Source: an uncultured Gammaproteobacteria bacterium
GTDB taxonomy: Bacteria > Pseudomonadota > Gammaproteobacteria > CAISUE01
Length of the DNA stretch: 64,000 nucleotides
Reading direction: 5' to 3'
Assembly (NCBI GenBank): GCA_964471475.1
Contig: CAYYFQ010000003.1
Location: 164-64,163 of the forward strand
A program made the position numbers and the translations under genes. Below the pieces are notes generated by a model. That model did not search any database. It saw nothing but the letters and a program-made list of their open reading frames with translations, and had not been told where the DNA came from. Below, piece by piece: positions 5,174 through 56,600 of this stretch; positions within the stretch are counted from its first letter, which is position 1; the number at the start of each line of letters is the position of its first letter.

Positions 5174-5176
5174 CTA

Positions 5177-5551: not shown

Positions 5552-5587
5552 ACTGTTATAAAACTTTAAAATAAAGAGGTGACAATA

Positions 5588-5875
5588 ATGAGTAAAGTAA
5601 ATCCAACTATCATTAGTAAACGCGATGGCTTAAAAGTTGTTCGCTTGCAAGTGGAGGCAGGAGGAATAGTACCCGAGCATTCAGCTAATGCACATGTAGT
5701 GATTGTGCCAATTAAAGGCAAAGGCACTTTTATCATTAATAAAGTACCACAACCTATTTTGGTTGGAGAAATCATAGAAATGGAGCCCAACACGCCACAT
5801 TCAGTAGAAGCTAATACAGATTTAGAGTTGATGGTAATTCAAATGCAGCTTGCACTTGCTAAAGCAGCATCTTAA
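5588..5875 (+). CDS. Small cupin-domain protein
   Basis: GGIVPEHSANAHVVIVPIKGKGTF....GEIIEMEPNTPHSVEA has the cupin two-motif pattern. An AGAGG Shine-Dalgarno precedes the ATG at 5588. Confidence 0.65.
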   Translation: MSKVNPTIISKRDGLKVVRLQVEAGGIVPEHSANAHVVIVPIKGKGTFIINKVPQPILVGEIIEMEPNTPHSVEANTDLELMVIQMQLALAKAAS

Positions 5876-8385: not shown

Positions 8386-9438
8386 ATGGCTTATCATGCG
8401 TGCAAAAATGTGAAGCTAAGCCCTGTGATTACTCTTCCAAAATCCGAACTACATATCCATCTTGAAAGCGCTATTTCTCCTGCTTTATTAAAAAATTTTG
8501 CTAAAGCACAACACAAAGAGTTGCCACGAGAGCTTTTTACTGCTGATGGGGAAAACTATTATTTAAAAAATTTTACAGAACTTCACCACCTTTATGATTT
8601 CGTGGCTAGTTTTTTAACGACGCCTGAAGATTTTTATCAGTTGGCTTATAGTTATTTACAACATTTAACAGAGGACGGCGCAATTTATGCGGAGTTGATT
8701 ATTGCACCAGGCTATGCGCTTGCGCATGGGATTAGTTATTCTCAATTAATAGAAAGTTATGCAAAAGCTATTGATGATGCGAGGCGTGATTTTGGCATAG
8801 AAAGTCGATTATTACTTGCGCTCATTCGTCATCAGGGTTTGAATGAAGCCAAAAAAGCCTTAGATCAAGCATTATATGAACGTCATCCTTATTTAAGTGG
8901 TGTTAATCTAGTTGGAGACGTGACTCAGTATCCTTTAAAAATTTTTTTACCACTCTATGAAAAAGCGGCGAGTGCTGGGCTTGGTTGTACTATTCACGTC
9001 GGTGAAACTTTTCACCCTTTTGAATATGAAGAAATGCAATTAGTTTTAGATCATTTCCCCATTACAAGGATTGGTCATGGCATACGAGCAGTGGACTCCC
9101 CTCCTCTACTTGAAAAAATACTTGAAAAAAATATTGTCATGGAGATCTCTTTATCAAGTAATGTGTTATTACAATTTTCTAAAGACTATGCATCACACCC
9201 CCTCAGTATTTTTAAAAATTTAGGGATAAAATATTGTTTGAACACGGATGATTCTTATTTAATGAATACGACGCTTCAGCGCGAACATCAATTGGCGCAG
9301 ATGCATTTGAACCTTACTAAGGAAGATCTGCTTTGTGCCACTAAAACAGCTATTGAAGCTGCTTTTGTACCGGAAAATATTAAGCAACAACTTTTGCATA
9401 GGATAGCAGAGGCTTCTGCGCGCCTTCCCGTGCGCTAA
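8386..9438 (+). CDS. Adenosine/adenine deaminase family metallo-hydrolase
   Basis: LPKSELHIHLES (metal-binding HxH), HVGE and CLNTDDS are adenosine deaminase signatures. The ORF track starts at a TTG (8311); the ATG at 8386 gives a canonical N-terminal length. Confidence 0.8.
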   Translation: MAYHACKNVKLSPVITLPKSELHIHLESAISPALLKNFAKAQHKELPRELFTADGENYYLKNFTELHHLYDFVASFLTTPEDFYQLAYSYLQHLTEDGAIYAELIIAPGYALAHGISYSQLIESYAKAIDDARRDFGIESRLLLALIRHQGLNEAKKALDQALYERHPYLSGVNLVGDVTQYPLKIFLPLYEKAASAGLGCTIHVGETFHPFEYEEMQLVLDHFPITRIGHGIRAVDSPPLLEKILEKNIVMEISLSSNVLLQFSKDYASHPLSIFKNLGIKYCLNTDDSYLMNTTLQREHQLAQMHLNLTKEDLLCATKTAIEAAFVPENIKQQLLHRIAEASARLPVR

Positions 9439-28030: not shown

Positions 28031-28107
28031 CGGGGCGTAGCGCAGCCTGGTAGCGTACTTGCATGGGGTGCAAGTGGTCGCTGGTTCAAATCCAGTCGCC
28101 CCGACCA
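28031..28107 (+). tRNA. tRNA-Pro (anticodon GGG)
   Basis: Folded by hand. The acceptor pairs CGGGGCG with CGCCCCG (a C1:G72 pair, typical of bacterial tRNA-Pro) and is followed by A73 and an encoded CCA. The D arm is GCGC/AGCCTGGTA/GCGT. The anticodon arm is CTTGC-AT[GGG]GT-GCAAG. The T arm is GCTGG-TTCAAAT-CCAGT. Confidence 0.9.
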
Positions 28108-43300: not shown

Positions 43301-45930
43301 GTATTACTAACAGGATATCCTATAGAAATATTTTCATCTTTGACCACAGCAACAAATGAGGTAATCGTCGTTTCAGTCGGACCATAGACATTAAAAATTT
43401 TTGTATCTGCATCGCCTTTAATTTTTTTACAAATACTGGCCGTTAATTTTTCACCTCCCGCTATAATTCTTTTGACAGACCTCACTCTATCAAACGTATA
43501 AAGTTCTAAAAGGCTCGGCGTAGCATGTACATGGGTAACACCATGCGCATTAAGATAATGGTAAAATTGCTCTTTTTGTAACCACAATCGATTAGGCAAC
43601 AGCAACAACTCATAACCATTTAACAGCGGCAACATGATTTGCTCTACTGAAGCATCAAAAACATAATTAAAAAATTGCAACATCACTTCGCTACGGTCAA
43701 GCTGATAACGTTGTTTTAGATCAAACAATAAACTTACAACACCAGCATGCTGTACAAGCACCCCTTTGGGTTTTCCTGTGGAACCTGAAGTATAGATAAC
43801 ATAAGCCAAATCTTGCGGCTTTGATGTTCCTACCAGATTGTCTTGCGCAAATGCATCAAAAATATCAGTCTGATCTAAAGGGACTATTGAAAATTGAGGC
43901 ATGCCTACAGACAATTTGCGCCATCTTGGTAATAAACTTTCTTGTGTCAGCAATATATTTATTTGAGTGTCCCCCAGAATATAGCTTAGCCGGTCATCGG
44001 GGTAAGTAGGATCCATCGGCACATAAGCAGCACCTGCTTTTAATATGCCTAATATGCCAATAATCATTTCAAAGGAACGCTCGATAACTAAGCCTACAAA
44101 TTGATCGGCATCTGAGCTTATTCCATGTGCTCTTAAGTAATGCGCTACTTGATTTGCTCTGGCATTCAGCTCGGCATAACTCATTCGTTGATTTTCATAA
44201 GCAAGTGCAACCTGATGTGGGGTTCTTGCAACTTGCGCTTCGAAGAGTTGATGCAATGTCGCTTGGGGAAAAGGCTGGGTCGTTTGGTTCCACGTTAGAC
44301 GTTGTTGATGAACTTCTGCCTCCGTCAGCATTCTAATGTCTTTAAGCGCAATTTGTGGCGCTGCAGTCACAACGTCAAGGATTCGACAATAGTGCGTAAA
44401 TAATCGCTCAATACAAGCTTGGGTATATAAATCACTTCGATAATTGAAAGTTAAATAAACTTGACGCTGGTTTTCAATGAATTCCACCCCGATAGGATAC
44501 TTGACTGTGCCTGGCGTTTCATGATCGACAGGATAGGATTGGAATGTAAAGGGTAAATGATAATCGGTTTGAGATGCACCTAAATTCAAGCCAAGCTGAT
44601 AGACAAAAAACGCTTCAATCAGATCGTCCGCATGTCCTGTTTTTTGGAAAGCGCTTCTAACAATATCATTATAGGGTACCTGACCATTGAGTAAATCGTA
44701 TTGCACATCGGCTTTTAATATTTTTAACCATGTTGAAAATGTCTGCTCATTTTCGAGCTGACAGCGAAGCGGTAATGTATTGACAAAACAACCGACGGCA
44801 GACTCACATCCCGGCAATAAACGATTGAAAAATGCTGTCCCAACCAATATATCTTTTTGCTGAGTATATTTAGCCAATAAAATAAAATAAGTAGCTAAAT
44901 ATGTGGTAAAGGGCGTTGCTCCTTGTGCTTTACTTAACCGTAGCATACTTTGATGGTAAGCTTCTGGTAAGATAAAAGTCATGCTGTGCCCGCTCTCTTG
45001 AGTAACTATTGCCGAGCTAGTACTATGCACATCAGCAGGTAATACAATACGTGATTCATAACCACTTAACCGTTGCTGCCAGTAGCGTAACTGCACTTGA
45101 TAATCTTGAGAAGTGCACCAGTCTTTCTCCCACGCCGCATATTGACGAAATTGAAAAGCCGGCGGTAATAACGATAATGATAATTGAGGATTTGGATCTA
45201 AAAGGGCGCGATATAACGTAAAAAGATCTTTAAAAAATATTGAACCAGAAGCACCGTCAACAACAATGTGATGAAAAACAAAAAGTAATACAACCGTATT
45301 GGTAGAAGTATAAAATAGCTTCACCCGCCATAAAGGCGCTTTACTTAAATCAAATGGCTCTTTAATAAAACTACATTCTTGTACCCCAAGATTTTTAATA
45401 TCAATCGCTGCATCACTTCTTTTATCAGCAGTAACCAAAGATACCTGCGCTTCAGGTAAAATTTCTTGAATAATTTGTCCTGTTTCATCAAGCCTATACT
45501 GCGTACGCAAAATCTCATGACGCTGCATTAACTGAGCTAATGCTTGCTTAAAAATTTCTTCAGAAAATTGCCCACTTAACTCCAGCACATTATGTTCGTA
45601 ATAAGAAGCAGGCTCACCGAGTAGCTTATCTAGAAAATAAAATCGTTCTTGGCTTTTTGAAGCAGACAACACAATAGGTGCAGTCTGCTTTGTGAAAGAC
45701 ATAAGTTCATATTGCCCCTCACCTGAAAGATCTTCTTCCTCACAAATCCCTTCATGCTCTAGTAATAACTCAACTAGCTCATCAAATCCTAATTCTGCCG
45801 CCAATGCAGATGGTGTTAGTTTAGACACCGCATCGACACTCGATAAATTAACACCCTTTTTCAAAAAATATTGAACAGCCTGTTGATCGTTTTTACGAAT
45901 TGCATCAAAAATATTTGCGTACTCATACAT
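28351..45930 (-). CDS. Tetramodular NRPS with a fused C-terminal extension (5859 aa): ANK(N)-C-A-T-C-A-T-C-A-T-E-C-A-T-TE-ANK-TM(~12, MATE/MOP-like)-OTU
   Basis: Single uninterrupted ORF with a GGAGG Shine-Dalgarno 9 nt upstream. C-domain His motifs: HHIVVDGASG (~45250), HHIITDGVSIQ (~42040), HHIITDGVSMQ (~38850), HHAILDGWSG (34351..34383). E domain: HHLIVDAVSW (~35710). A-domain cores: YTSGSTGKPKG (~43780), YTSGTTGTPKG (~40600), YTSGSTGQPKG (~37410), YTSGSTGRPKG (~32950). Carrier Ser codons: 42607..42609 (GGHSL), 39418..39420 (GGHSL), 36244..36246 (GGDSI), 31783..31785 (GGNSL). TE GWSMGG Ser codon: 31390..31392. Confidence 0.95.
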   Translation of the reverse strand: MYEYANIFDAIRKNDQQAVQYFLKKGVNLSSVDAVSKLTPSALAAELGFDELVELLLEHEGICEEEDLSGEGQYELMSFTKQTAPIVLSASKSQERFYFLDKLLGEPASYYEHNVLELSGQFSEEIFKQALAQLMQRHEILRTQYRLDETGQIIQEILPEAQVSLVTADKRSDAAIDIKNLGVQECSFIKEPFDLSKAPLWRVKLFYTSTNTVVLLFVFHHIVVDGASGSIFFKDLFTLYRALLDPNPQLSLSLLPPAFQFRQYAAWEKDWCTSQDYQVQLRYWQQRLSGYESRIVLPADVHSTSSAIVTQESGHSMTFILPEAYHQSMLRLSKAQGATPFTTYLATYFILLAKYTQQKDILVGTAFFNRLLPGCESAVGCFVNTLPLRCQLENEQTFSTWLKILKADVQYDLLNGQVPYNDIVRSAFQKTGHADDLIEAFFVYQLGLNLGASQTDYHLPFTFQSYPVDHETPGTVKYPIGVEFIENQRQVYLTFNYRSDLYTQACIERLFTHYCRILDVVTAAPQIALKDIRMLTEAEVHQQRLTWNQTTQPFPQATLHQLFEAQVARTPHQVALAYENQRMSYAELNARANQVAHYLRAHGISSDADQFVGLVIERSFEMIIGILGILKAGAAYVPMDPTYPDDRLSYILGDTQINILLTQESLLPRWRKLSVGMPQFSIVPLDQTDIFDAFAQDNLVGTSKPQDLAYVIYTSGSTGKPKGVLVQHAGVVSLLFDLKQRYQLDRSEVMLQFFNYVFDASVEQIMLPLLNGYELLLLPNRLWLQKEQFYHYLNAHGVTHVHATPSLLELYTFDRVRSVKRIIAGGEKLTASICKKIKGDADTKIFNVYGPTETTITSFVAVVKDENISIGYPVSNTLAYVLDENLNLLPLGAAGELYIGGVGLARGYLNREDLTKERFIWHRFDSESEPVRLYKTGDWVRYSVDGDLDYIGRADNQIKIRGFRVELEEIEEQLSQQAQVDCAAVLVREEAGNKQLVAYVVPAQLLGEDLQSKKDYIQTLRTQLATVLPDYMVPAHMMLVDTMPLNVNGKIDRKALSQLSIDDGDKQDYHAPETTTEKRLAALWSEILHIPVDRIGLHDNFFHLGGHSLLMMSLLSKVREGWQTELSLKAIFNLADLQAMAKAIDESLGQTLALPVLTKQLRSEFIPLSFAQQRLWFLEQLRPGNAVYQVPLVLKLQGQCHTDALSRAYMAMIERHESLRTHFESVVGEATQVVDEANKIPRLLIQHAASLSKDVKTYIEEGILAPFDLTRGPLIRGELIVLEKDTFILFVVMHHIITDGVSIQIYLRELFEFYRQYSEGSQELAPLPVQYVDYTLWQRTWLKDAVLQEQVAYWQQQLNDIPELITLPTDYPRPKELTYAGGRVGFNLSEEVVSKLKIFAQANQVTMYMVMLAAFQAVLHRYSGQKIIVVGSPIANRRAEQTESLIGFFVNTLALKADFSEKLTVKEFIEQIKATTLDAYAHQDIPFEHLVNHLNIVRQTNANPIFQVMLAYREDTTELQPLGNLDVSFLEEGEYPIAKFDLALDMVYRGKAIHAYMEYSKNLFKPKTIHRLMERFERFLTQMVKRPEAYLHELSLLSEAEVHQQLVEWNQTQCDYPKTTVHEFFEAQVTRTPDQIALVYEDQTMTYRVLNARANQLAHYLSAQGIGSIPDQLVGLSIERSFEIIIGILAVLKAGGAYVPMDPAHPDERLRYMLKDTQVSLVLTQTHLVPRWLSLSNDEYPFLVTDLNSLANTQLLEENIRNTVSPDSLAYVIYTSGTTGTPKGVMIEHHGVADTLREAALIQEVGDGTHVLQFAAMNFDAMVWDLATLMVGGILHLLSSRYSIMESLKQVLTKHPIEVAVLTPSVLRQFSATDFPHLKTLIAMGEALDESLMQYWAEKCRIFINGYGPTEATICTTLSVYNSQAKNFLAARIGRPIANTNLYVFDENTQLLPIGIPGELYVGGQRLARGYLNRQDLTNERFIWHRFSGESDPVRMYRTGDLVRYSADGALEYIGRVDNQIKIRGLRVELEEIEAQLLKQAHIAHAAVIVREESGEKQLVAYLVTDQVFNEDVQSKKDYIQALRTQLAKFLPNYMIPAHMILIDVMPLNVNGKVDRKALSQLFIDDCAQQDYRAPETATEKHLAELWSALLHIPVDRIGLNDNFFHLGGHSLLMMNLLSEVREAWQTELSLKTIFNLASLQEMASTIDESLGQTLSLPALARKVRPDVVPLSFAQQRLWFLEQLMPGKAVYQVPLVVKLSGRCDIDVLSRAYTAMIERHESLRTRFASVAGEAVQVVDETDKIPRLMVRDVASLGEDVRAYLQKGIATSFDLTRGPLIRGELIVLGEDAFILFVVMHHIITDGVSMQVYLQELVRHYRQYSEGGHELTPLPVQYVDYTLWQRSWLKDEALQEQVDYWKQQLSDIPEMISLPTDYKRPKELTYSGGRVSFHLPLEVVEEIKAFAKANQLTMFMVVLAAFQTVLHRYSGQKIVVVGSPIANRRVQQLESLIGFFVNTLALKADFSEALTVNELIEQVKATTLDAYAHQDIPFEHLVNHLDIARQLNANPIFQVMLAYQEYIEQPELWEGTQATFLEEEYPIAKFDLTLSIHDQGKGFNGSIEYAKDLFKEETIACFSEHFQRILLEMVKRPEVYLHDLAFLSETEIHQQLIEWNQTQRPYLLTTIHALFETQVERTPDQTALVYEEHTMTYRELNARANQLARYLRTQGIGTTPDQLVGLGTERSFEMMIGILGILKAGGAYVPMDPIHPDERLRYMLQDTKVSLVLTQAHLISRWSALSSEAQQFSVIALDAMHDDSEFSQDNLLSLAKPEDLAYVIYTSGSTGQPKGVMIAHQGVVNLCARTARYDGFTQGSHVLQFSSMSFDAMVWEWTSALTLGGVLHLLSSRYPVLEALQIVLAQHPIEITLLTPSVLRQIPKKDLAHLKLLFVGAEALDPMLFNQYRHLCHFINLYGPTEITVFATNCIQTSDSLLPASCIGCAIDNTQMYVLDTHMQLLPKGAVGELYIGGVGLARGYLNREDLTQERFIWHRFDRESAPQRLYKTGDLVRYCADGYVEYIGRVDNQIKIRGFRVELEEIEAQLLKQAHVVHAAVIAKEASGSKQLVAYIVCDQIFDEGSENKQDYIQALRAQLATFLPDYMIPAHMMLLDQMPLTVSGKVNRQALPKFASDMLEQYVEPSNAVEATLCCIWAEVLNLEKVGVEDDFFRIGGDSILSIQLASKLRAAGFACSIKTLFECRTVQSLAQAISAHNALSIIDAEQGVLEGSFGLLPIQQYFFASHHIRPHHWNQSFLIKVPQLEFARLEAILPLLVNQHDALRLCYQNGAQTYHCAIPIPEIKRLECANLTVDDLQAKLTEWQSHFDIINGPLWQVGYIEGYADGSARIYFALHHLIVDAVSWRILAEDLKTLYEGGVVGTKTSSYRQWVNAVSTYGDRHQDELPYWRSVVQDQRVYPKLDDYPHTYQMKLDQDWTRDLVQRSSQTYYTEINDLLLTALAYALHAWNGSSGNHIILEGHGRENIAETLDVDHTIGWFTTLYPVRLVLGADVGSSIKLIKECLRKIPTKGLGYGVFRYQLQDQVLNAHPLPVVSFNYLGQFNATGDQLWQLSAEASGTGVHEDNLSDYYLNLNGAVVNGELQFSVTSKLGEPLSLAFIAAFEEALKTIIRHTMECIQTGLQQHTPSDFPYVTISATLLNQLEAEGAIEDIYPANSLQQGFIHHALMQPEDDAYRVQLLMDYHAPLEVDHYQAAWQKAIETYPILRTCFAWEEALIQIIYRSGKLIFKEHDISDEVDKEAAVKAIQAADREEAFDLSKRELLRIHLIKHAIDHYTIMKSEHHAILDGWSGPILLDTVQTYYAQLRQGESIIIQPDKSYIKVQEYFVTHKETVKRYWQEKLARGAEANDINALLSCHVDLDKVKAIRDPQTAIIILKNEDYASLHRLARAEGFTVNVLLQYAWHKLLHVYTRSTTTIVGTTIAGRDLPIEGVERSVGLYINTLPLIIDWDGEETVLEQLKQLHQRIMELNTHSYVELANLQQRGRRLFHSLFVFENYPVERAMVDEESQIVFRSSIEKLDYPLGIVAYESNGELGISLKYAGEYLETERAKQLLEQMVRIVKVLSMKLHQTHQQISLASEEEYQLQIYHWPQTQFTYPQMTLPELFEAQVDKTPDQVALVYEGQAMTYQKLNARANQVAHYLRSEGIGAIPNQLVGLGMERSFAMIIGILAVLKAGAAYVPMDPAYPEQRLYYMLEDTQITLLLTQTHLVQKWLSLSNAERPFAVVPLDSTAQYGMFPQENLPQVSRPECLAYVIYTSGSTGRPKGVMIETHGVVNYLFNLHEHFADAQRIDFSSNLSFDLSVTTTLYPLCFGKTIFLYSGSLLESDRFVQHLVENQIDLVKSTPALMSAIHLGFNGNYRLMYCIVGGEKLDRQSARHILSYSDCIYDEYGPTETTVGATYYRITDQTREYNIGKSYHNYQCYVLDPYHNILPIGVAGELYIGGAGLARGYLHRDDLTSERFITHQFSEMDAPVRLYRTGDLVRYAIDGNLEYIGRADNQIKIRGFRIELEEIETQLLKHAYVVNAVVVARENQGSKQLIAYLVLDQAFDGDSQDYVSQVRSQLATFLPDYMIPAQLVLLDKIPLTANGKVDRKALPALDFDQLSETYIAPQTVTERKLAELWSQMLHIPVECIGMRDNFFDKGGNSLLVIQLIHSVKAQLSIEMTIGHFYQSPTIETIIQAQESPSMDLMDASIIPFAVDRLAPPIFLFHPRSGFATLYRSFSSALAREFSVYAVNYPGLVEEEMVYYKAFSALAKDYIQRIKTVAPQGPYHLGGWSMGGSIAVEVTRQLQAAGEVVATLILIDSGYQTYADEVGYPFMKLFTNHLLAKLHPELANQFDVAQRITDISFHVENLMLAYQAEKIQAVEKIVFVKCQGHVVSLANQYAANIAWGFNSLFNGLEHCFAESQPIHFADIACGHFEVFDQPWQNILNRLVPSLLSEDALNAYRIGDDRHNLLLAAKRGATYQVRRILSETAHQLLNVQDEEGKSLLHHSIEFGHIHLANFLIARGIDINLRDHDGQTALDGLSTHTMSMAYLRDCLSLRLDIVPASNSDLEQAGAIHVDRAEERLQQVARRKGKHALHIKQLWRTFKATCRRDFIDSSWHSGLEVSLPYTAVGVLNLTQKLLILRMLSSNSLALIGAFVLDDTVVSTVSSLAQHLNTPLANYLNVALSRNNADEVGRAFNAGLFLSTSMVIPLFVYGSLAKQIGEAIGMESDLTQAWSLLAFTHMIGAIPALGSITLEGFYSIVYERRMMAFGAAMEAGAALLSTFLFNEKGDLNGQNLGIALSIGSISKFAFYMLDLYRQDHLRHYPLFRNFPWPLIKRYWADMGRYLYTPFFSLSNYLLTAALFASKDSSALDLVGYAVARSAFDLVNLSGSIIGPVSSLIMSRFEAGSQYKNILSMGVLGMTTSLSFAAIPAVVLSAISGEQLTQLFISTEAIPDLIESTFFGSVRFSAYFFIGISLINSLRTLLNRYLGQSFAYSAIQKIACYCSFLLCNGLILTTFLAFDVDAQNLIPEIFAVQAVSLLLELFEWLRVSDFECALEQGEQKIVEVETDLLPSIPVSKRPVSQIMPFFATAKLNTGSIDPHDMAKLSTLLINLERIKYELDLEQALHLSQATSGENVGSSSLLLTQATRYGFAIEDRLVWHDGNCFLHAVEDQLKIRNIEQNVSYEQLRERAAAFMLTHSEEFKPFIEALDEANPESYIRRAYKDGEWVDDPMISALARTMDMTFIIIRSDVEQPTVINPDKEHCLYIGYYVGLHYVSLRGAAIQDETRILIPRNNFKNT
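28396..28833 (-). other. C-terminal OTU-family cysteine protease (deubiquitinase-like) domain
   Basis: The Cys loop is VWHDGNCFLHAV (Cys codon 28759..28761) and the His loop is YYVGLHYVSL (His codon 28429..28431), about 110 aa apart as in OTU folds. An acidic/aromatic segment lies between them (YKDGEWVDDPMISALA). Confidence 0.8.
29120..30440 (-). other. Polytopic membrane domain (about 12 hydrophobic helices, about 440 aa) with MATE/MOP-exporter-like two-fold internal symmetry
   Basis: It runs from ...FIDSSWHSGLEVSLPYTAVGVLNL to ...LLLELFEWLRVSDFE. I counted 12 hydrophobic segments by eye. Each half has a MATE-like loop motif (NVALSRNNADEVGRAFNAGLFL and SLIMSRFEAGSQYKNILSMGVL). Confidence 0.6.
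30630..30880 (-). other. Post-TE ankyrin repeats (about 3)
   Basis: HNLLLAAKRGATYQVRRILSE...DEEGKSLLHHSIEFGHIHLANFLIARGIDINLRDHDGQTALDGL. Confidence 0.75.
30900..31640 (-). other. Type I thioesterase (TE) domain
   Basis: PPIFLFHPRSGFATLY... and PYHLGGWSMGGSIAVE (GxSxG). Confidence 0.85.
34800..36110 (-). other. Epimerisation (E) domain of NRPS module 3, followed by a DCL-type C domain
   Basis: It starts at ...GSFGLLPIQQYFF and carries HHLIVDAVSWRIL. The next C domain starts at YPANSLQQGFIHHAL. Confidence 0.8.
45750..45930 (-). other. N-terminal ankyrin-like repeats (about 2) of the NRPS
   Basis: MYEYANIFDAIRKNDQQAVQYFLKKGVNLSS...LTPSALAAELGFDELVELLLEHEG fits the ANK helix-turn-helix consensus. 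It is homologous to the PKS2 N-terminus. Confidence 0.65.
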
Positions 45931-45990: not shown

Positions 45991-48900
45991 CTATGGGGGA
46001 GCCAAAGAACTGGCAGCCGCTCCTAGTTGCTCTGTTGGTTTATTGGCTTCTTTAGGAGTTGGCAAAGAAGGGGGTTGAGGGAAAAACTCCATCGCGCTGC
46101 TTAAAGCGCGTGGCGACCTTGATCTTCCTAGTACCAACCGCTCAATAAATAATTGGCCTTCTTCTGGTATTGAAGATAAAAGTTGTACGATATCTTCCTC
46201 TTTAATATCTTGATAAAATAATTTCCCTTGTCGAATATTTTCTTTCAATGGCTCTACCGCTGGAGATTCTGATTCGATAATAAAATTACGAATGGCAATC
46301 GCGCCCAACAAATATTGCCGCACCGTTTGATCTTCCGTTAATGACAGCATTGCTTGATCAACCACAGGTAGATACCCTAAAAATGCTTGGGCTATTCTTG
46401 ACTTCTGACTATACAAGGCCAAAGCTAAAGGGGTAACACCTAAATGTGTTCGTTGGTTCAAATTAGCTCCTTTTGACAGTAACCACAGCGCCATATCCAT
46501 GTCATCTAATTGCACCGCCAAGTGGAGGCTCGTTTTACCATTAGCACCCGAGAGATTAATTTTCCTTGTTCCTTTTTCAAGTACTGAAGCAAGAAGTTTT
46601 TTATTATTTTTCCTCACGCAAACAAATAAGGTGTCGTTACCAATATCTGTTTTAAGCTCTATAAAACAGCTGAGGTGCAATGCCATAGCAGCAATACTTT
46701 TTTGCTGTAGAACATGCATGGGGTCAAATTGCTTCGTAGGTTCATCTTCCTTAAGTAAGGCCTCTTTTAACTCTGCTAAGCTAGTTTCGACTAATTGCGC
46801 TATTTGCTTATGCAATGTCAACCACTGCAACAGAGTTATTTTTTGAGTATCGCTTACATCATCAAATACACCTAATCTTTCTATTAAAAAGTGCGTCTTA
46901 AATATTTCCACCAATTGCATTTCTAAGCTTGTTCTTGGGGGGCAATATGCTGTTATCGCTGGTTGTCTTGGTTGAATCTGTACCGTTTTTGCTTCGGCTA
47001 ATTGATTCAATTGTGAAGTAATATATTGGCTTAGCTTTTCTAAAGTAGCACATTCCAGCATAATGGCATTGGACAAAATAATGTCGTTACCTAAAAGCGC
47101 TTGCAACCGATTTTTTAAATCCACTGCCATCAAAGAGTCAAGCCCCATCGCGGCAAATTCTGCATGAACATCAATCTCGCTCACTTCCAATTGGCTCACT
47201 TGTGCTACAAGTGCTTTCAATTTTTCTTGCACTGTTAATTGACGCACTTCCATCGACAATGCTAATAATCCTGTTAGCCATTTCCCATCGCCTGCAGTTG
47301 ATTTCATCGGAGCAGCAGATTGGTCAATTAATAGCTTTTCCAATAGCCGGTTAGTTATCGGGTTCATACTCGCCATTTGTGCCCAATTTGCATCAATCAA
47401 TATTGGTGAAGATTCTTGACCCAGCATTACTTGCTCAAATAAAGCTATTCCTTTGTCTCTACTGAAAGGATGGACCCCTCTAGATTCATGGAAAGACTGC
47501 AAACGACTGTCAGTTGCCATACCCACCTCGGCCCAAGGTCCCCAATGAATACTCTGGCCACTTAAACCTTGTTGTCGACGATAGGCCATCAATTCATCCA
47601 TAAAACTATTAGCTGCTGCATAATTTAACTGTCCAACATTACCGATGATAGAGGCCACTGATGAAAAACTAATAAAATATTCAAGTTCCGGCTGGCTATA
47701 GTGATGCAAATACCATAACGCCAATTTGGGTTTTAATACGGCCTCAAATTGTGGCCAACTTTGCTTCTCTAATAAATTATCTTGAATCACCCCTGCTGCA
47801 TGAATAATACCGCGCAGCGCAAGTCGTGTTTCGGTTAATTGCCTAAATAGATCCTCTACAGCATTAGCATCGGCGATGTCCAATTGAGATACTTGTACGC
47901 GTATGCCTTGACTTTGCCATTCACTGATTATCGCCTGTACTTCAGAAGAAGGAGCATGCCGACCAATGAGAATCAGATCCTCCACCCCTTGAGCAACCAG
48001 AAACTTCGCAACTTCCCAACCTAAACCTCTTAACCCTCCGGTGATTAAAAAGCTGCCTGGACGTTTTTCGAGTTTAGCGTGATATTCTGGAACAGTGCTT
48101 ATAATTATTTTGCCAATGTGTTCAGCACGCTGCATGGCTTTAAATGCTTCTTTCACTTCTGTTAATGCATAATGCTCATACGGTAAAGCGTGATAAATAC
48201 CTGTCTCAAATTGGGGCGATATTTTGTTCCACAATTTTTGAATAAACTCAGAATCATGAGCAATCATGCTATCCAAAGCTAACACCGTATAAACAATATC
48301 TTTACGACAATGATAAATTTGCTCTTCTGTCCATACATCGCGTTTACTTATTTCAACAAACCGCGCTTCTTGTGCACACACTTGTAAACTTGTTTCAATA
48401 TAACCTTGACCCGTTAACGTGTTGAGCACTACATCTACGCCTCGTCCCTGTGTATCTTGTAAAATAGCTGCTCCATACGCCAAGCTACGTGAATCATAAA
48501 TATGCTGTATCCCTAATGATTTTAAATAATCCCGCTTGCGCGCATCCCCCGCCGTCGCATAAATCTTCGCGCCAATGGCTTGTGCAATTTGAATTGCAGC
48601 TAAACCTACCCCACCTGTGGCTGTATGAATTAATACGCTTTCTTTAGGTTTTAGTTGAGCGCATTGAATGAGTGCTTGATACGCCGTTAAAAATACCACT
48701 GGCAACCCGGCTGACTCCGCATGACTTAATTGCTGAGGTTGTTTTGCTACGATGCGACCATCAACAATAACTTCACTTGAGAAGCTTCCCGCACAGTGAC
48801 GAACATCTTCCGCTAGCTGAGCGCCTATACCTAACACGCGATCTCCGGCTTGATAATGATCTATCCAATCACGACCAACTTCTACCACAACTCCTGCAAA

Positions 48901-51900
48901 ATCGCTCCCTAAAGAACCTGCATCGCCTGGATAGAGATTCATTGCGTTCAAAACATCTCTAAAATTTAAAGCAGCTGCTTTAAATTTAATACGAAGCTCA
49001 TGTGCTGCTAATGCACGTTGCGCACCAATGTTTTTAACCAAATGCAGTTCATCAATTAACCCTGCATTGCCTTTAACTAAGGTATAAGGCCCTGCTTCTT
49101 GTGGAAGCACTTTTTTATCTATAGCGATTGCTCCTTGCAATCTTCCTACATAGCGTTTGCCTGCACGATAGCGTACCTCACGCTCTATGAGACCATGCGC
49201 TAATATCTGTGTGATATAACGCCATTGTTCTAATTGAGGTTCAAAAAAATCCATATCAACATGGCAACATCGGATATCCCGTGCAGATAACTCTACCCAT
49301 AATGAGCGCATAAATCCTATTAATCCTGCCTGTACTAAATCATGATTATGCGCTCCTTGGCTCCATAGCACACAAGCTTTTAAGGAAGTAGTTGGCGTAA
49401 ATAATGTTTGCGTAATCAGGAACAAGCGGTGTAACAAGCGCTCACATGCGCTTGTTGGAGTAATGGTTTCTTCTAACTCATGTTGCAAATATTGCCAGTG
49501 AATGACTACTTGCACTGGGGATATCGGTAATGACATTATTTTAACTAAAGCTTGTTCACTATTCTCTGTTACTTCCCAAGCAGATGTTTCTGATCGATTC
49601 CATATTTGATAACAACCATTCGCAAGCATCACAATGCCTGTTTCATAGCGGTGACGAATTTCACTTGCCCATGTTTCATTAGCCACTAACCACAATGTTG
49701 GCTGTATTACACCGCCATTAGCAACATCTTTTTCACAAACTTGCCAAGCATATTCATAACATTCAGCTATTTGTTTACGCTTTAATCCCTGACTAAGCTG
49801 ATTCAAATAACTACTGAACTGAGCACGGTTCACAGCTTGTATTTTGACATCATGCAAATGGCAGCAACACTCACCCGATCGATCATACACGGCAACTTGT
49901 ATCTCTGTAGGAAAACCTGTTTCATTACATTTCCAATTTAGCGAGATATGACTTGCATGATTAAGAGCCTCTCTTTCTCCTGTATAAGTAAGCGCACCAA
50001 AACTCCCGAGTAAATAAATCATTTGGGCTAATGCGTGTTCACGATCATGCACAGCTAACATCAAGGCTTGCAGGACGCCATCTAATAAAGCTGGAGAAAG
50101 ATAATAGCCAGCATCAAGTTGCGTTGGCGCTTTTAACCGTACAACAGCTTCGTTTTCACTATAATTCACTAGATCAATTACTTGAAAAGCTGCTTGATAA
50201 TTAAATCCTGCCCTATTTGCTAATCTATAAAAATCATCTCCTCGCATCACTTGTCGGCAACGCCCTTCAATAGCAGGCGTCTCTAGCAATGAAGGCATTG
50301 ATGTCGTTTCTAACATGCGCACTTGCCCTTCGGCATGAAGCACAGCGCTTCCTGGCTCATCTTTTTCAGTACGGCTGTAAATCATAATTCGTAACACTTT
50401 GCTTGCTTTATCAATACTTAGCTGTGTTTGCAGCAAACGATCTTTGTTTAAGATCAATGGCGCATGAATATCAAGACTTTGCACTTGAACAACCGGCAGT
50501 TGCTCTTCTTCTAATAAAAAACGCGGAAAAGTCAAGCGTCCAGCCGCCAACATCATTTCCAGCAGCGCTACGCCCGGCATAATTGCCGTCTGTAAAATTT
50601 GATGATCCCACAAATATCTGAGCGCCGGATCGCTCAGTGATTGTTGATATAGCACTCCTCCTTCGGGTAAAACGGTCAACTGCCCCAATAAAGGATGACC
50701 GCTAGCCATTGTTCCATTGACCGAATAAGATGCTTGGTGTCTATGCGTTAATGCTTCTAGCCAATAACGTTTTCTTTGAAACGCATACGTCGGCAAGCTT
50801 ACCTTGCGATAAGAGTACCTTTGGGACCTGTAATAATTTTCCCAATATATTTCACAACCGGCTACATAACACTGACCTAAAGCCACTAACATGCTTTCAT
50901 GATTCCCAACATCTGCCTTGAGACTGTAACTCCAGCTTAAACCTTCCCTACCTTCTGCACATTGTTGTCCAAGAGTGGTTAATATAGCCCCAGGCCCTAC
51001 TTCAAGATATAACTGATTCTCTTGGAAAGATCTTTCCATCGCTCTTAAATAATTCACTGGACTTAGTAATTGATCACACCAATAATCCGCAGTAATCGCT
51101 TCCAATCGATCGCCCGTTACCGTTGAAATCATTGTAATTTGTGGCACTTTATAATGAATTGTTTCTGCAAGCTTTTTAAAATCTTCTCGCATAGGCCGCA
51201 TATGATCACTATGAAAAGCATGAGAAACCGATAACAGCGTCGAACGGATATTTTTGTCTGCGCAGCTTTGTTTCAATACTTGCAGTTTGTTTTTATCTCC
51301 CGAAACTACCGTTTGTTTAGGGGCATTAATACCCGCAATACTCAAGCCTAAATCTGCTATTAACGCTCGCGCTTCTTCCACAGAACATTGTAAAGCAAGC
51401 ATTCCTCCTTGATTTTCAGGTAACCCTTGCATCAGTCGCCCTCTTGCTGACACCAGTTTCAGCGCTTCTTCTAATGTCATCACCTCAGCAATCGTTGCTG
51501 CTACCAATTCCCCAATGCTATGACCAATAAGCTGATGTGGCATCACTCCTGAACTCATCCACAGCTTAGCCAAAGCATATTCCAATGCGAAAATCACAGG
51601 TTGCGCATATTGAGTTTGATTCAATAACTCCGTGTTATCACCAAACAATATACTATAAAAAGGTTGGGGCAATTCTTCTTTTAATAACTCCGCACATTCA
51701 TCTAATAGCGTTCGAAAAACAGGATATGTTTCATATAGCTCACGCCCCATATGGGCATATTGACTCCCTTGGCCCGTAAATAAAAACGTAATGGTTTTAG
51801 GAACCCTCGCATCACCACGAAGTAACTCATCCCTTGCTAGCTTTTCTTTGAAATCTTCTACGGTTCGCGCTACGACCGCACCTCGATAGGCAAAATGACT

Positions 51901-53649
51901 CCGTCCTACCGCACTCGTATACGCTATATTCCCTAGCTCTTCTTGGCTATCTTCCAAATAATGCGCGTATTTTTCTTTGAGTCCTTCTCGTGCATCGCTT
52001 TGTTTACCTGAAAATACAATCAACTGAGAACGTGTATCTTGAGAAGAATCTTGTGTGTGATCACAAGGTACTTCTTCAACTATCACATGCGCATTGGTGC
52101 CACTAAAGCCAAACGAACTAACACCAGCACGACGTATATGATGCTCTCGACGCTCCCACGCTTGCATACCTACGGGCAATTGAATGTTGCTACCCTCTAG
52201 ATCAATATGTGGATTTAATTGCTGAAAATGTAATAAGCTGGGTATTTGACCATGCTGTAATGAAAGTACAGTTTTGATCAAACCAGCCATACCGGCAGCT
52301 GCCTCCAAATGCCCCACATACGTTTTCGCCGTCCCCACTATGAGTGGCTGCTCTCTTGGTACGTCCGTGGAAAAAACTGATCTTAAAGCATTCAATTCAA
52401 TCGGGTCGCCAAGACTTGTCCCTGTACCATGTGCCTCAATATAATCAATGTCGTTAGGGCTAAGCTCGGCTTTTTTTAAGGCACTTTTTATCAACTGCTC
52501 TTGTGCAGGGCCATTCGGTACAGTTAGGCCGCTACTTGGGCCATCTTGATTCACTGCACTGCTGCGAATGACTGCTAAAATCGCATCATTATTGATAAGA
52601 GCTCGACGCAATGATTTTAAAATAACTATGCCACAACCTTCACCACGACCAAATCCATCGGCACTAGCATCAAATGTCTTGCATTTCCCATCCACCGATA
52701 GCATATGCGCTTGCGAAAAATTAATAAAATTACCTTCCGCAAGCAATAAATTCACGCCACCCACAATGGCCATTTGAATTTCACCGCTCTGAATGCGATG
52801 ACACGCCTCATCTAATGCCACTAAAGATGAAGAGCAGGCGGTTTCAATACTCATGGCAGGTCCTTGGCATCCCAACCAATAAGCAATTCTCCCTGCTGCT
52901 GTACTCAATGCATTTCCAGTCGCGGTATAAGCCGTATACGCTTCTTCCGGTTGTAGTTGATTAATCATTGCACCATAATCTTGTGCCGCAATGCCAACAT
53001 AGACCCCTGTGTTGCTTTCACGAAGTTTTTCAGGGACGATATGAGCCGATTCTAGTGCTTCCCATACGACTTCCATCAGCAAGCGCTGCTGTGGGTCTAA
53101 ATAGTTTGCTTCCTTCGGACTAATATTAAAAAAAGTAGCATCAAATGTTTTTACATCTTGCTGAAGAAAAGATCCTAATCGCGTATAACTTTTTCCCGGC
53201 ACGCCTTGAACTGGCGAATAATATGCATCTACCGACCAACGATCTCTTGGGATTTCAGCTGTTGCATCTTTTCCTTCTGACAGCATACGCCAAAAGCCCG
53301 ATAAATCACTTCCCATACCGGGGAAACGCGCACTCATTCCGATGATTGCAATAGGCTCAGTACTGCGTATATCTCGTGATGGTGAAAGTCCACTTCCCAA
53401 TCTTCTAAAAGATCTTTTAAAAGCATTCAGCGTATTTACATCAATATTAGGTGAGTCCTTTACTTCTTCTTCCAAAAGATCGTCCTTATCTTCATAAGGA
53501 ATTAATAGCTCGGAAATTTCATCAAAATCTAATTCTGCCGCTAGATCTAAAGCCGTACTTTGAGATTCTTTATCAACGCCTGCTTCGATAAAACCCCTAA
53601 CAGCGTTTATATCATTTGCTTTAACTGCTTCAAATATATTTTGATACAT
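45991..53649 (-). CDS. Fully reducing type I PKS module with terminal ankyrin repeats (2552 aa): ANK(N)-KS-AT-DH-ER-KR-ACP-[Ser-less CP-like]-ANK(C)
   Basis: KS: ETACSSSLVAL (Cys codon 52834..52836), EAHGTGTSLGDPIE, GHLEAAAG. AT: FLFTGQGSQY, GHSIGE (Ser codon 51517..51519) and a malonyl-type HAFH motif. DH: HPLLG, H-x8-P, LLDGVLQ. ER: LNFRDVLNAMNLYPG, ATGGVGLAAIQIA. KR: FLITGGLRGLG. ACP: GLDSLMAV (Ser codon 47134..47136). A GAGGAA Shine-Dalgarno is present and the gap to the upstream gene is 31 bp. Confidence 0.95.
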   Translation of the reverse strand: MYQNIFEAVKANDINAVRGFIEAGVDKESQSTALDLAAELDFDEISELLIPYEDKDDLLEEEVKDSPNIDVNTLNAFKRSFRRLGSGLSPSRDIRSTEPIAIIGMSARFPGMGSDLSGFWRMLSEGKDATAEIPRDRWSVDAYYSPVQGVPGKSYTRLGSFLQQDVKTFDATFFNISPKEANYLDPQQRLLMEVVWEALESAHIVPEKLRESNTGVYVGIAAQDYGAMINQLQPEEAYTAYTATGNALSTAAGRIAYWLGCQGPAMSIETACSSSLVALDEACHRIQSGEIQMAIVGGVNLLLAEGNFINFSQAHMLSVDGKCKTFDASADGFGRGEGCGIVILKSLRRALINNDAILAVIRSSAVNQDGPSSGLTVPNGPAQEQLIKSALKKAELSPNDIDYIEAHGTGTSLGDPIELNALRSVFSTDVPREQPLIVGTAKTYVGHLEAAAGMAGLIKTVLSLQHGQIPSLLHFQQLNPHIDLEGSNIQLPVGMQAWERREHHIRRAGVSSFGFSGTNAHVIVEEVPCDHTQDSSQDTRSQLIVFSGKQSDAREGLKEKYAHYLEDSQEELGNIAYTSAVGRSHFAYRGAVVARTVEDFKEKLARDELLRGDARVPKTITFLFTGQGSQYAHMGRELYETYPVFRTLLDECAELLKEELPQPFYSILFGDNTELLNQTQYAQPVIFALEYALAKLWMSSGVMPHQLIGHSIGELVAATIAEVMTLEEALKLVSARGRLMQGLPENQGGMLALQCSVEEARALIADLGLSIAGINAPKQTVVSGDKNKLQVLKQSCADKNIRSTLLSVSHAFHSDHMRPMREDFKKLAETIHYKVPQITMISTVTGDRLEAITADYWCDQLLSPVNYLRAMERSFQENQLYLEVGPGAILTTLGQQCAEGREGLSWSYSLKADVGNHESMLVALGQCYVAGCEIYWENYYRSQRYSYRKVSLPTYAFQRKRYWLEALTHRHQASYSVNGTMASGHPLLGQLTVLPEGGVLYQQSLSDPALRYLWDHQILQTAIMPGVALLEMMLAAGRLTFPRFLLEEEQLPVVQVQSLDIHAPLILNKDRLLQTQLSIDKASKVLRIMIYSRTEKDEPGSAVLHAEGQVRMLETTSMPSLLETPAIEGRCRQVMRGDDFYRLANRAGFNYQAAFQVIDLVNYSENEAVVRLKAPTQLDAGYYLSPALLDGVLQALMLAVHDREHALAQMIYLLGSFGALTYTGEREALNHASHISLNWKCNETGFPTEIQVAVYDRSGECCCHLHDVKIQAVNRAQFSSYLNQLSQGLKRKQIAECYEYAWQVCEKDVANGGVIQPTLWLVANETWASEIRHRYETGIVMLANGCYQIWNRSETSAWEVTENSEQALVKIMSLPISPVQVVIHWQYLQHELEETITPTSACERLLHRLFLITQTLFTPTTSLKACVLWSQGAHNHDLVQAGLIGFMRSLWVELSARDIRCCHVDMDFFEPQLEQWRYITQILAHGLIEREVRYRAGKRYVGRLQGAIAIDKKVLPQEAGPYTLVKGNAGLIDELHLVKNIGAQRALAAHELRIKFKAAALNFRDVLNAMNLYPGDAGSLGSDFAGVVVEVGRDWIDHYQAGDRVLGIGAQLAEDVRHCAGSFSSEVIVDGRIVAKQPQQLSHAESAGLPVVFLTAYQALIQCAQLKPKESVLIHTATGGVGLAAIQIAQAIGAKIYATAGDARKRDYLKSLGIQHIYDSRSLAYGAAILQDTQGRGVDVVLNTLTGQGYIETSLQVCAQEARFVEISKRDVWTEEQIYHCRKDIVYTVLALDSMIAHDSEFIQKLWNKISPQFETGIYHALPYEHYALTEVKEAFKAMQRAEHIGKIIISTVPEYHAKLEKRPGSFLITGGLRGLGWEVAKFLVAQGVEDLILIGRHAPSSEVQAIISEWQSQGIRVQVSQLDIADANAVEDLFRQLTETRLALRGIIHAAGVIQDNLLEKQSWPQFEAVLKPKLALWYLHHYSQPELEYFISFSSVASIIGNVGQLNYAAANSFMDELMAYRRQQGLSGQSIHWGPWAEVGMATDSRLQSFHESRGVHPFSRDKGIALFEQVMLGQESSPILIDANWAQMASMNPITNRLLEKLLIDQSAAPMKSTAGDGKWLTGLLALSMEVRQLTVQEKLKALVAQVSQLEVSEIDVHAEFAAMGLDSLMAVDLKNRLQALLGNDIILSNAIMLECATLEKLSQYITSQLNQLAEAKTVQIQPRQPAITAYCPPRTSLEMQLVEIFKTHFLIERLGVFDDVSDTQKITLLQWLTLHKQIAQLVETSLAELKEALLKEDEPTKQFDPMHVLQQKSIAAMALHLSCFIELKTDIGNDTLFVCVRKNNKKLLASVLEKGTRKINLSGANGKTSLHLAVQLDDMDMALWLLSKGANLNQRTHLGVTPLALALYSQKSRIAQAFLGYLPVVDQAMLSLTEDQTVRQYLLGAIAIRNFIIESESPAVEPLKENIRQGKLFYQDIKEEDIVQLLSSIPEEGQLFIERLVLGRSRSPRALSSAMEFFPQPPSLPTPKEANKPTEQLGAAASSLAPP
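46370..46650 (-). other. C-terminal ankyrin repeats (about 3) of PKS2
   Basis: DTLFVCVRKNNKKLLASVLEKGTRKINLSGANGKTSLHLAVQLDDMDMALWLLSKGANLNQRTHLGVTPLALALYSQ. Confidence 0.8.
46770..46960 (-). other. Degenerate carrier-protein-like segment lacking the phosphopantetheinyl Ser (PKS2)
   Basis: PPRTSLEMQLVEIFKTHFLIERLGVFDDVSDTQKITLLQWL mimics a PCP N-terminus (PRTxxExxLxxIWxxVL...IGxxDNFFxLGGxS), but no GGxS/DSL is present. Confidence 0.45.
51455..52104. repeat. Copy 1 of a 650-bp perfect direct repeat (KS end, KS-AT linker and N-terminal half of AT) in PKS2
   Basis: Identical to 60339..60988 (offset 8884 nt) wherever I compared the lines. The encoded peptides are identical from TNAHVIVEEVPCDHTQ... 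to ...SARGRLMQ. Confidence 0.8.
53485..53649 (-). other. N-terminal ankyrin-like repeats (about 2) of PKS2
   Basis: MYQNIFEAVKANDINAVRGFIEAGVDKESQSTALDLAAELDFDEISELLIPY. Confidence 0.65.
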
Positions 53650-53680
53650 ATCATCATTTCCTCTTCCATAAAAACTTTGT

Positions 53681-56600
53681 TTATCTACGATATTCCTCTG
53701 CCTGTTTTTTCTCTAAGGTATCTTTGGTCGGCTGCGATGACGAAGCCTGTTGGCCAAAAATTCCTACTCCTTCTAATAGAGGAGCGATAGCATGAGACGA
53801 AGTGCTTTGTGATACCTCTAAAATCCTATGCTCAATAAAGCGCTTTCCATAATCAGGTAAAAGCAATGATAGTTGTCTTATAAGATCAAGCGAAATATCT
53901 TGATCAAATCGTTTTCCTTGACGTAAATTTTCTTCAAAAGGCTTTATCCACGGGAGCCGTGAACCCAAAATACAATCACGTATAGCCATAGCACTCAAGA
54001 GATCATGCCTTATCGCCTCCGTTGATGTGAGCGCAAGTACTGCTTCATCTACTTTAGGCAAGTATATTAAAAGTTTTTTTACTACATCAAATTGCTGATT
54101 AAACAAAGCTAATGCCAACGGTGTAACACCTAGCCGAGTTTGCTGGTTGAGGTCAGCTCCCTGCGATAGTAACCATACTACCATCGCTGTATTGCCTAAT
54201 TGCGCTGCCAAATGAAGACTGGTTTTACCATTGCTATCTGCCATGTTAATTTTCTTCGCCCCTTTGGTAAGCAAGGAAGTAATTAAACTTTGATTATTTT
54301 TTTTGACAAAGGTAAATAAAGGATCCCGCTCAATAGCAACCTGAGACTCTACCAAGCAACTTAGATAAAGCGACATTTCTGCAATCGTATTTTTTTCCAA
54401 GATATTGATATCTAATTTTATTGCTGCATCTTCAGCTGCTTCTTGTCCTTGTGCTGGCAGCACTTTCATTTGCTCTTTCAGCGCGTTACTCAGTTCTTGC
54501 ATAGCGCGATGCATGCTCATCCACTGAGCAAGTGTGGTATTTTTCAAATCATTGATTTTGTCAATTACACTTATTGTCTGTATTGCAAATCGCTTCTTAA
54601 ACATTTCAACTAATTTTGTTTCTATTAACGTCCTTGGTAATCCATAAGCCATTTCTGCTGATTTTTCTGTTTGCTGAATACCTGTCGTTTTTTCTTCAAA
54701 AACATTAATCTGCTCAGTAAGATATTGGCTCAGCCGTTTTAGATTTGGATAGTCGAACAGCACTGTATTTGGTAAAGCGGCACTGTCTCCTAAAAAGCTT
54801 TGCAAGCGATTTTTTAGATCCATAATCATTAAAGAATCTAATCCCATCTCGGTAAATCCAGTTTGTTCGTTGAGGTCTTGCTCATTGAGTCCTGTAATCT
54901 TAGCAATCAGCTGTTTTAGTTTTGCTGCAATCCAAGATTGTCTTTCTGGTCTAGGTTTGCTTAAGATTTCTTTTAGCCACAGTGCATTTGTTGAGTTCAC
55001 ATTACCTTGACCTACGCTGGCTGCAATTAAAGGGTTCATAAAACGTTTGAGATTTGGTGTTGACATAGCACTAAACTTTTCCCAATTTGCTGATAGCACT
55101 GCTGTCTCATCTACGTTCGGATCTAATAAAATACGCTCAAGCGCGGCGACGCCTTCTTGTACACCCAGTTGCTTTAACCCTATTTTTTCATGGCGTGCTT
55201 TATAAATCGCTGCCGTGCCAATCTCCGCCCAAGGACCCCAGTGGATAGTTTGACCTACCAAGCCTTGCGCCCTTCTTGCATGAACTAAAGCATCTAAAAA
55301 AGCGTTGGCACTAGCATGGTTGGCTTGACCTACATTGCCTAAAAACGATGCTGTTGAGGAATACATCACAAAATAGTCTAATTCCATATTCAGGCGCTGG
55401 CTCCATTGATGTAAGTGCCAAGCACCATAGATTTTAGGTTTAAACACATATTCCATATGCGCCCAATCTTGCTGCAGTAATGTAGCATCCATCAATAAAC
55501 CGGCTGAATGAATAATACCTTTCAACGGCAAACATTCAGTTTGAATCATCTGCAATAAATCTTTAACCTGAATTTCATCACTCACGTCGACTTGCTTCAC
55601 TTGAATATCTACACCACTAGCCCGCCATTGCTCGAGCGTAGTTGCTGTTCTCGCATCAACTTGTTTTCGTCTACTGATGAGAACCAGTTGCTTCGCACCT
55701 CGATTCACCAGTAATTCGGCTGTCGCCAACCCTAGACCCGAAAGTCCTCCCGTAATTAAGTAACTTGCTTGTTGATCGAGTTGTAACTCGATTTGCAAAG
55801 GCCTTTGTAGCACAATCACCACTTTGCCGATGTGCTTTGCTTGTTGCATATGTTGAAATGCTTCTACTGCATGACCTATAGTAAAAGCCGTTACTGGCAA
55901 GGCTGTATAAGTTTTCTCTGCGAATAACGGTCGCATCGCTTCCCACATGACAGGTATATGTTCAGGCGATCGCGCCAAATCTTCGTCTAAAGCAATAACA
56001 CTATATTTAACATCAGCCCTTACTGCTGCCATCTGTGCTGTAGTCCAAATAGCCCGCTTACTTAATTCAATAAAATGACCATGTTGTGCACAACATGCAA
56101 GCGTGGCTTCGACAAATCCTTCTCCCGTTAAACTATTAAGCACGACATCCACGCCACTACCTTGAGTATCAGCTAATAACGCTTCTTGATAGGCTAACGA
56201 TCGCGAGTCATAGATATATTTAACACCGAGGTGACTCAAATAAGCACGCTTTTCAGGAGTTCCTGCGGTTGCATAAATTTCAGCACCCAGATACTTTGCC
56301 ATCTGAATAGCTGATAAACCGATTCCCCCCGTTGCAGCATGAATCAGAATCTTATCGCCTTTCTTTAATTGAGCTTCTTCAATTAACGCACGATAATTAG
56401 TTAAAAACACCGAAGGCAAAGTGGCCGCTTGGGGATATGTCAATTCTCGTGGTTTCGCATACACTTGGGTATGATGCGTAATAGCGATACTTGCCAAGCT
56501 ACCCCAAGCAATTCCGAACACGCCCTCACCTACATGTAGATGAGTCACTGCGGCCCCTACTTCAAGTACAGTACCCGAAAAGTCACTTCCCAAAGGCGAG

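Follow-up and report, generated by a model that had tools for sequence, protein, structure and literature searches.

How do megasynthases that are encoded as separate proteins come to act in order, and what do ankyrin (ANK) repeats contribute where one of them ends and the next begins? The question arises from a window of 64,000 nucleotides, the whole of the stretch analysed here, from an uncultured Gammaproteobacteria bacterium (GenBank assembly GCA_964471475.1, contig CAYYFQ010000003.1), in which the minus strand carries a head-to-tail series of three large genes that encode two polyketide synthases (PKSs), PKS1 and PKS2, and a nonribosomal peptide synthetase (NRPS). PKS1 and PKS2 each carry an ANK tail after their last acyl carrier protein (ACP), while PKS2 and the NRPS each open with a small ANK-like head ahead of their first ketosynthase (KS) or condensation (C) domain. 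The two tails are paralogous, as are the two heads; both kinds of element are conserved in a second cluster and both are restricted to subunit termini. Since a paired pattern that is found at termini only is what defines docking domains, docking is the best explanation for it, and we propose, with slightly better than even confidence, that the ANK tail and the two-unit ANK head form a matched docking-domain pair, a previously undescribed kind of connector. The genes and the first of the two gaps between them are:

beyond 64000 to the stop codon at 53681-53683, minus strand: PKS1, with the visible domains DH-ACP-KS-AT-cMT-DH-ER-KR-ACP, then ANK
53650-53680, minus strand: PKS1/PKS2 intergenic gap of 31 bp, with the Shine-Dalgarno-like site GGAAGAGGA before the PKS2 ATG
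45991-53649, minus strand: PKS2 (P0032), 2552 amino acids, with the domains KS-AT-DH-ER-KR-ACP, then ANK
28351-45930, minus strand: NRPS, 5859 amino acids, with four modules and a thioesterase

The gap from the PKS2 stop to the NRPS start measures 60 bp and likewise contains a Shine-Dalgarno-like site. The frame of PKS1 runs without a stop through 63947-64000 (LEALKAKYLHYLEYSTER..), and the N-terminus of this protein, with or without a head, lies beyond the window. Because the frame is open to base 64000, the TTG at 63946 that is listed as the PKS1 start is an artefact.

The C-terminal tails are ankyrin repeat domains with additional family-specific parts. PKS1 extends 344 amino acids past its last ACP. 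The parts of the two tails, with AlphaFold2 confidence given as the predicted local distance difference test (pLDDT), are:

54491-54658, minus strand: PKS1 two-helix element after the ACP, low-confidence helices in AlphaFold2, kept in all four full tails
54341-54415, minus strand: PKS1 amphipathic helix before the ANK repeats (..NTIAEMSLYLSC..; ..TIAEMSLYLSC..), conserved
54041-54340, minus strand: PKS1 ANK repeats R1-R3 (R2, ..NGKTSLHLAAQLGNTAMVVWLLSQGADLN..; R3, ..GVTPLALAL..)
53816-54040, minus strand: PKS1 post-ANK helical extension of the solenoid (..ENLRQGKRFDQDI..), 75 amino acids, family-specific
53684-53815, minus strand: PKS1 C-terminal segment, 44 amino acids, predicted disordered, pLDDT <50
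45994-47016, minus strand: PKS2 C-terminal tail, paralogous to the PKS1 tail, with ANK R1-R3 at 46351-46650
46791-46950, minus strand: PKS2 counterpart of the two-helix element, ~55 amino acids

All tails belong to the ankyrin repeat superfamily (Pfam Ank clan). Ank_2 scores are 80 bits for PKS1 (E 1.9e-22), 51.6 bits for PKS2 and 61.8 and 59.8 bits for the tails of L002, a related cluster described below, all above the curated cut-off of 27.3 bits, and Ank (cut-off 21.1 bits) scores 45 bits on PKS1 and 31 bits on PKS2. A Foldseek search with the model of the PKS1 tail returned DARPin (designed ankyrin repeat protein) and ankyrin matches only. The PKS1 and PKS2 tails are 43% identical over 290 amino acids (E 5e-74), with GNTAMVV opposite DDMDMAL. 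In every tail, those of L002 included, a conserved segment of ~55 amino acids with the pattern ..PRT.IE.KLVE.FK..F......D......T..QW...... is situated between the ACP and the ANK region. This two-helix element is without the phosphopantetheine serine motif and, judged by sequence, looks like the first two helices of a degenerate carrier protein. In PKS1, a linker of 25 amino acids separates it from the pre-ANK helix, in which I, A, S and C are invariant across the four tails and which is modelled at tail residues 111-123 with a pLDDT of ~50. The AlphaFold2 model of the PKS1 tail is poor overall (mean pLDDT 56), but repeat 2 and everything up to the end of the extension are well modelled (74-92), with the post-ANK extension representing the best-modelled part (85-92). 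A sequence search of the PDB gave no match for this extension. The last 44 amino acids of PKS1 contain what gives the visual impression of a weak aromatic motif, GIFGQ, for which PKS2 has EFFPQ.

The N-terminal heads are much smaller and consist of an ANK N-cap and a single repeat:

53494-53649, minus strand: PKS2 head, ANK N-cap and one repeat, 52 amino acids, net charge -8
53359-53493, minus strand: PKS2 acidic/basic linker from head to KS, 45 amino acids; the KS begins at EPIAIIGMSARFPG
45754-45930, minus strand: NRPS head, ANK N-cap and one repeat, 59 amino acids, adjoining the first condensation domain

The 52 amino acids of the PKS2 head and the first 59 of the NRPS are 47-50% identical, and both are acidic (net charge -8 and -4). 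Pfam alone is insufficient to classify them: Ank_2 scores 17.4 bits on the PKS2 head, 25.6 bits on the NRPS head and 14.8-25.6 bits over all heads, below the cut-off of 27.3 bits, and Ank reaches 21.1 bits, exactly its cut-off, on the NRPS head only. We nevertheless accept the heads as ANK-like, based on profile comparison and modelling. In the PDB, a two-head profile matched nothing but DARPins and ankyrins, with E ~1e-13 for single DARPins, and the heads align to the DARPin N-cap and first internal repeat. The AlphaFold2 model of the PKS2 head contains the four helices expected (pLDDT 62) and no C-cap.

Most features of this junction had been called correctly in the original prediction, made from the DNA sequence alone. 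The peptides it quoted are present in the PKS1 and PKS2 translations, and PKS2 does start 31 bp past the PKS1 stop. Its description of an ANK/ANK junction between consecutive megasynthases is borne out by the Ank_2 scores of the tails and the PDB matches of the head profile, and the two-unit ANK cap with which it saw PKS2 open corresponds to the N-cap and one repeat seen in the profile alignment and the four-helix model. The two C-terminal ANK blocks are, as it stated, paralogous, and so are the PKS1-PKS2 and PKS2-NRPS junctions as a whole. One length requires correction: the sequence past ...PLALAL, given as a tail of ~110 amino acids, is actually ~140 amino acids long, ~95 of them conserved and confidently modelled as helix and the last 44 disordered.

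In the loci analysed, heads and tails are found exclusively where one subunit ends and the next begins. Hidden Markov models (HMMs) built from five heads and from five tails were run on all six-frame open reading frames (ORFs) of the window and of two further loci, L002 (metagenome, ENA ERZ27248701) and L005 (GCA_020047435.1, JAHZTN010304482.1; positions 1-1607, a 1.6-kb contig). The head HMM matched protein N-termini only and the tail HMM C-termini only, and neither matched at any of the ~9 covalent carrier-to-KS/C junctions of the three loci. The order tail, stop codon, head is present at all five inter-subunit junctions (two in the window, two in L002, one in L005), with gaps of 8-60 bp. 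Tails are placed after the terminal ACP and heads 10-45 amino acids ahead of the KS or C domain, and the middle subunits PKS2 and P0152 carry both, in keeping with their position. At these termini, Pfam reported ANK families only (E up to 1) and neither Docking (PF08990), the KS N-terminal family PF21394 nor a TubC-type domain; PF08990 and PF21394 were likewise unreported across the whole of PKS1 and PKS2. PF21394 is common among the other PKSs matched in a full-length PKS2 search and is absent from the P0032 entry. The docking role suggested in the original prediction fits this placement, the confinement to termini in three loci and the lack of any known docking family. Two other assignments were considered and rejected. 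The heads are not beta-hairpin docking (betaHD) or class 1 docking domains, given that their only Pfam matches are to ANK families and that the PKS2 head is predicted to be all-helical, and the post-ANK region is not a homologue of the heads, the head HMM scoring only 5 bits on the tails.

The tail/head family is very rare, and three loci were found. When the family-specific post-ANK segment served as query, a full HMMER search through 1.84 billion representative proteins gave, besides PKS2 of the window, P0152 and P0153 as the only meaningful matches. P0152 is a 4733-amino-acid, three-module PKS with a head at its start and a tail at its end. The organization of L002 is PKS(tail), 14 bp, head-PKS-tail, 15 bp, head-NRPS, and its NRPS is collinear with that of the window at 46.6% identity. 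The L002 geneA tail (junction 8540-8600) has no post-ANK extension and, according to hand mapping, ends exactly at canonical position 33 of R3, while the head that follows starts 14 bp on, at about position 4 of a repeat unit. P0153 is encoded on L005, which comprises the last part of a tail, a head, a condensation domain with a premature stop and unrelated AT-rich sequence. Due to this premature stop, L005 represents a degraded copy of the junction. With a contig number above 300,000, it seems to come from a large assembly in many pieces, which may be that of a eukaryotic host.

Other searches returned no further members. Among the best 119 other PKSs found with full-length PKS2, the closest being 36-46% identical, none contains a Pfam ANK domain. 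Two-tail patterns run on genome contigs matched one irrelevant ANK lipoprotein only, four-tail patterns run on metagenome contigs two stand-alone ANK proteins only, and tblastn of plasmids with the tail generic ANK proteins only. A word-index search with the PKS1 tail and the two heads also gave generic ANK proteins or nothing; these negatives are uninformative because the window's own PKS2 was missed as well, both with its paralogous tail and with its own first 60 amino acids as query, although the full-length query did find it.

We infer that tail and head bind each other and in which ways they might do so. The tail, composed of the conserved helix, three ANK repeats and usually the helical extension, follows the last ACP of the upstream synthase, and the head, an N-cap and one repeat with a short linker, precedes the downstream KS or C domain. 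Non-covalent binding between the two would stand in for the covalent ACP-to-KS/C linker and place the last ACP of PKS1 at the KS of PKS2 and that of PKS2 at the C domain of the NRPS, and the growing chain would be passed on in the order PKS1, PKS2, NRPS. There are two candidate modes of binding. The head, which is without a C-cap, could stack end-on onto the tail solenoid to yield a split ANK array, or the acidic head or linker could sit in the conserved, hydrophobic/basic concave groove of tail repeats R1-R3. The moderate pLDDT of 62 for the head modelled alone and its missing C-cap are as expected of an element that would be stabilized by a partner. End-on stacking is suggested by the geneA junction, where the tail ends at R3 position 33 and the next head starts at about position 4, as though a continuous array had been divided between two repeats. 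The other tails possess a 75-amino-acid structured extension and a disordered end, and the geometry may therefore differ there. A more specific proposal, that the junction cuts a single ANK solenoid, leaving R1-R3 (and the extension) upstream and the next two units downstream to reassemble end-on by fragment complementation, we regard as rather doubtful.

The divergence between the paralogous tails does not support the idea that they discriminate between partners. The original prediction had interpreted GNTAMVV versus DDMDMAL as divergence at surface positions that would allow docking pairs to distinguish cognate partners, and had proposed a comparison of substitutions on the concave ANK surface. 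We placed R1-R3 of the tails in the canonical 33-residue ANK register, taking positions 2, 3, 5, 13, 14 and 33 as concave. The heptad falls on R2 positions 15-21, a stretch formed by the inter-helix turn and helix 2 (back face, partly core), and is thus off the concave face; its only exposed positions, 18 and 21, are both on the convex back face. The concave positions are the better conserved ones: of 17 in each class, 8 concave and 5 convex positions hold the same residue in the two window tails, and 4 concave and 1 convex do not vary among four tails. The concave positions without variation, Q13 and L14 in R2 and L3 and V5 in R3, combine on this mapping with F/Y13 of R3 and neighbouring K/R residues into a hydrophobic, mildly basic patch. 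Such conservation of the groove suggests a ligand that is itself conserved and not one that discriminates. No clear grouping by junction type emerges from identity matrices, which give 54% for the tails and 53% for the heads of the window compared with each other, and for window elements compared with their positional counterparts in L002 48% and 52% (tails) and 49% and 62% (heads). Overall, heads and tails of the window and L002 are 40-62% identical, similar to the catalytic regions and the whole NRPS (46.6%). Tail alignment columns 7, 12, 24 and 78 are junction-type-specific, column 78 being V/A at R2 position 20 within the heptad, and can be considered candidates only for specificity positions.

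The NRPS possesses an unusual C-terminus that runs ~950 amino acids past the thioesterase (TE) domain (28351-31350, minus strand; amino acids ~4860-5859). It contains an ANK block at amino acids 5026-5095 that is unrelated to the tails (Ank_5 34 bits, Ank_2 31 bits), at least five hydrophobic, transmembrane (TM)-like segments at amino acids 5196-5581 and a C-terminal OTU cysteine-protease domain (Pfam 55 bits, DGNCFLHAV motif). This TE-ANK-TM-OTU terminus may anchor the assembly line to a membrane or process its product.

Several observations weigh against a docking function. The three loci constitute one cluster family, so that the co-occurrence of tail and head counts as one evolutionary event and not five. 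No clear specificity code is apparent, the window paralogs being no more diverged from each other than from their L002 counterparts. The overall net charge of the structured tail parts is close to zero (+2 and -1), which makes charge complementarity modest, and the geneA tail shows that at least the post-ANK extension is dispensable. In addition, the unrelated ANK block after the NRPS thioesterase, where no downstream partner is expected, indicates that ANK modules in this system do not all serve in docking.

Tails and heads could instead bind something other than each other, for example a trans-acting enzyme, a membrane complex (possibly via the ANK, TM and OTU parts of the NRPS) or a host protein. 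ANK repeats are generic protein-binding modules, which lends this explanation some weight, as does the conservation of the concave face over all tails, which is not partner-specific, and the NRPS terminus points to a membrane-anchored system rich in eukaryote-like domains. The strict pairing of tail and head at every subunit junction and their absence elsewhere would however be left without a reason, the HMMs detected no stand-alone protein with a head or tail in the window or L002, and megasynthases of 2,500-5,900 amino acids would be improbable secreted effectors. Overall we consider binding to another partner unlikely. The conserved concave face could also hold the tail's own ACP or the pre-ANK helix, as would be the case if the elements acted in cis as caps or in dimerization or solubility, with the tail stabilizing or parking the ACP, the head stabilizing the N-terminus of the KS or C domain and recognition achieved by ACP-KS or ACP-C contacts alone. 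PKS docking regions often contain dimerization elements, and the degenerate-carrier-like two-helix element between ACP and ANK repeats would suit such a role. A function in cis leaves two points unexplained, namely that internal modules, whose ACP and KS types are the same, are without these elements and that the middle subunit carries both, and it appears distinctly improbable to us.

Finally, the ANK segments might be accretions or relics of an ANK-rich genome that have no biosynthetic role. Their extreme rarity, with three loci among 1.84 billion representative proteins, and the degradation of one of the three copies could be read in this way, but non-functional segments would not be expected to keep 40-62% identity between diverged clusters, on a par with catalytic regions, together with intact reading frames, invariant framework and concave residues and a confidently modelled post-ANK extension. 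We give this explanation very little credence. Docking between consecutive subunits remains the reading we prefer.

The window has a G+C content of 40% and also encodes TamB, a type II secretion system (T2SS) F protein and a DegQ that is most similar to PDB entries 3pv2 and 4ynn, which we take to be Legionella DegQ structures. A host-associated bacterium resembling Legionellales is therefore a plausible source. A tRNA-Pro(GGG) gene is located at 28031-28107 on the plus strand, 244 bp past the NRPS stop, and a phage-type integrase gene at 6690-7922 on the minus strand, ~20 kb past the tRNA gene. The biosynthetic cluster may be situated at the edge of an integrated island. For the ORF at 9475-11907 (minus strand, 810 amino acids), Pfam gave no match at E up to 1e-5.

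As a function, docking between the subunits of an assembly line is known already; what an ANK/ANK pair would contribute is a new structural variant. The order of polyketide and peptide synthase subunits is set by docking domains, which also represent the main handles for re-wiring assembly lines and for scaffolding unrelated enzymes. In the literature we searched, the docking classes described were only short helical bundles, COM helices and pairs of a short linear motif (SLiM) with a beta-hairpin domain, and no description of ankyrin docking domains came up when ankyrin was searched together with docking, PKS, NRPS or Legionella. If the proposal is correct, a docking pair made of repeat proteins would supplement these classes with a connector that is structurally unrelated, potentially orthogonal and designable, given how much DARPin engineering has taught about the ankyrin scaffold, and would exemplify the recruitment of a eukaryote-like repeat domain into bacterial secondary metabolism. 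Should the split-solenoid arrangement apply, it would represent a novel structural class among docking domains and be orthogonal to every known one.

The elements of the window share features with three known systems. With ankyrin binding modules and DARPins they have the repeat signature and the predicted fold in common, the heads matching the DARPin N-cap and first repeat. Unlike DARPins, they are fused to the ends of PKSs and NRPSs, the head consists of two units without a C-cap and the tail carries the family-specific helical extension for which the PDB holds no sequence match. PKS-to-NRPS junctions commonly pair a SLiM with a betaHD domain, as in the EpoA/EpoB and TubB/TubC type (PMC13324335). 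There too, an element after the C-terminal ACP of the PKS is combined with a small, linker-borne domain before the C domain of the NRPS, and the pair is found between polypeptides only. In contrast, the N-terminal element described here is predicted to be an all-helical, two-repeat ANK unit instead of a beta-hairpin, and what follows the ACP is a folded ANK domain of at least 200 amino acids and not just a short linear motif, although the disordered last 44 amino acids might hold a SLiM as well. The class 1 (DEBS, PF08990) and class 2 (curacin) docking domains of cis-AT PKSs are likewise helical, are located at ACP C-termini and KS N-termini and occur as several paralogous pairs per assembly line, and the role in setting subunit order that we propose for tail and head is the same. 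The tails and heads differ from both classes in that they match neither PF08990 nor PF21394, are several times larger and belong to the ANK superfamily, while class 1 and class 2 domains are short coiled-coil or four-helix-bundle motifs.

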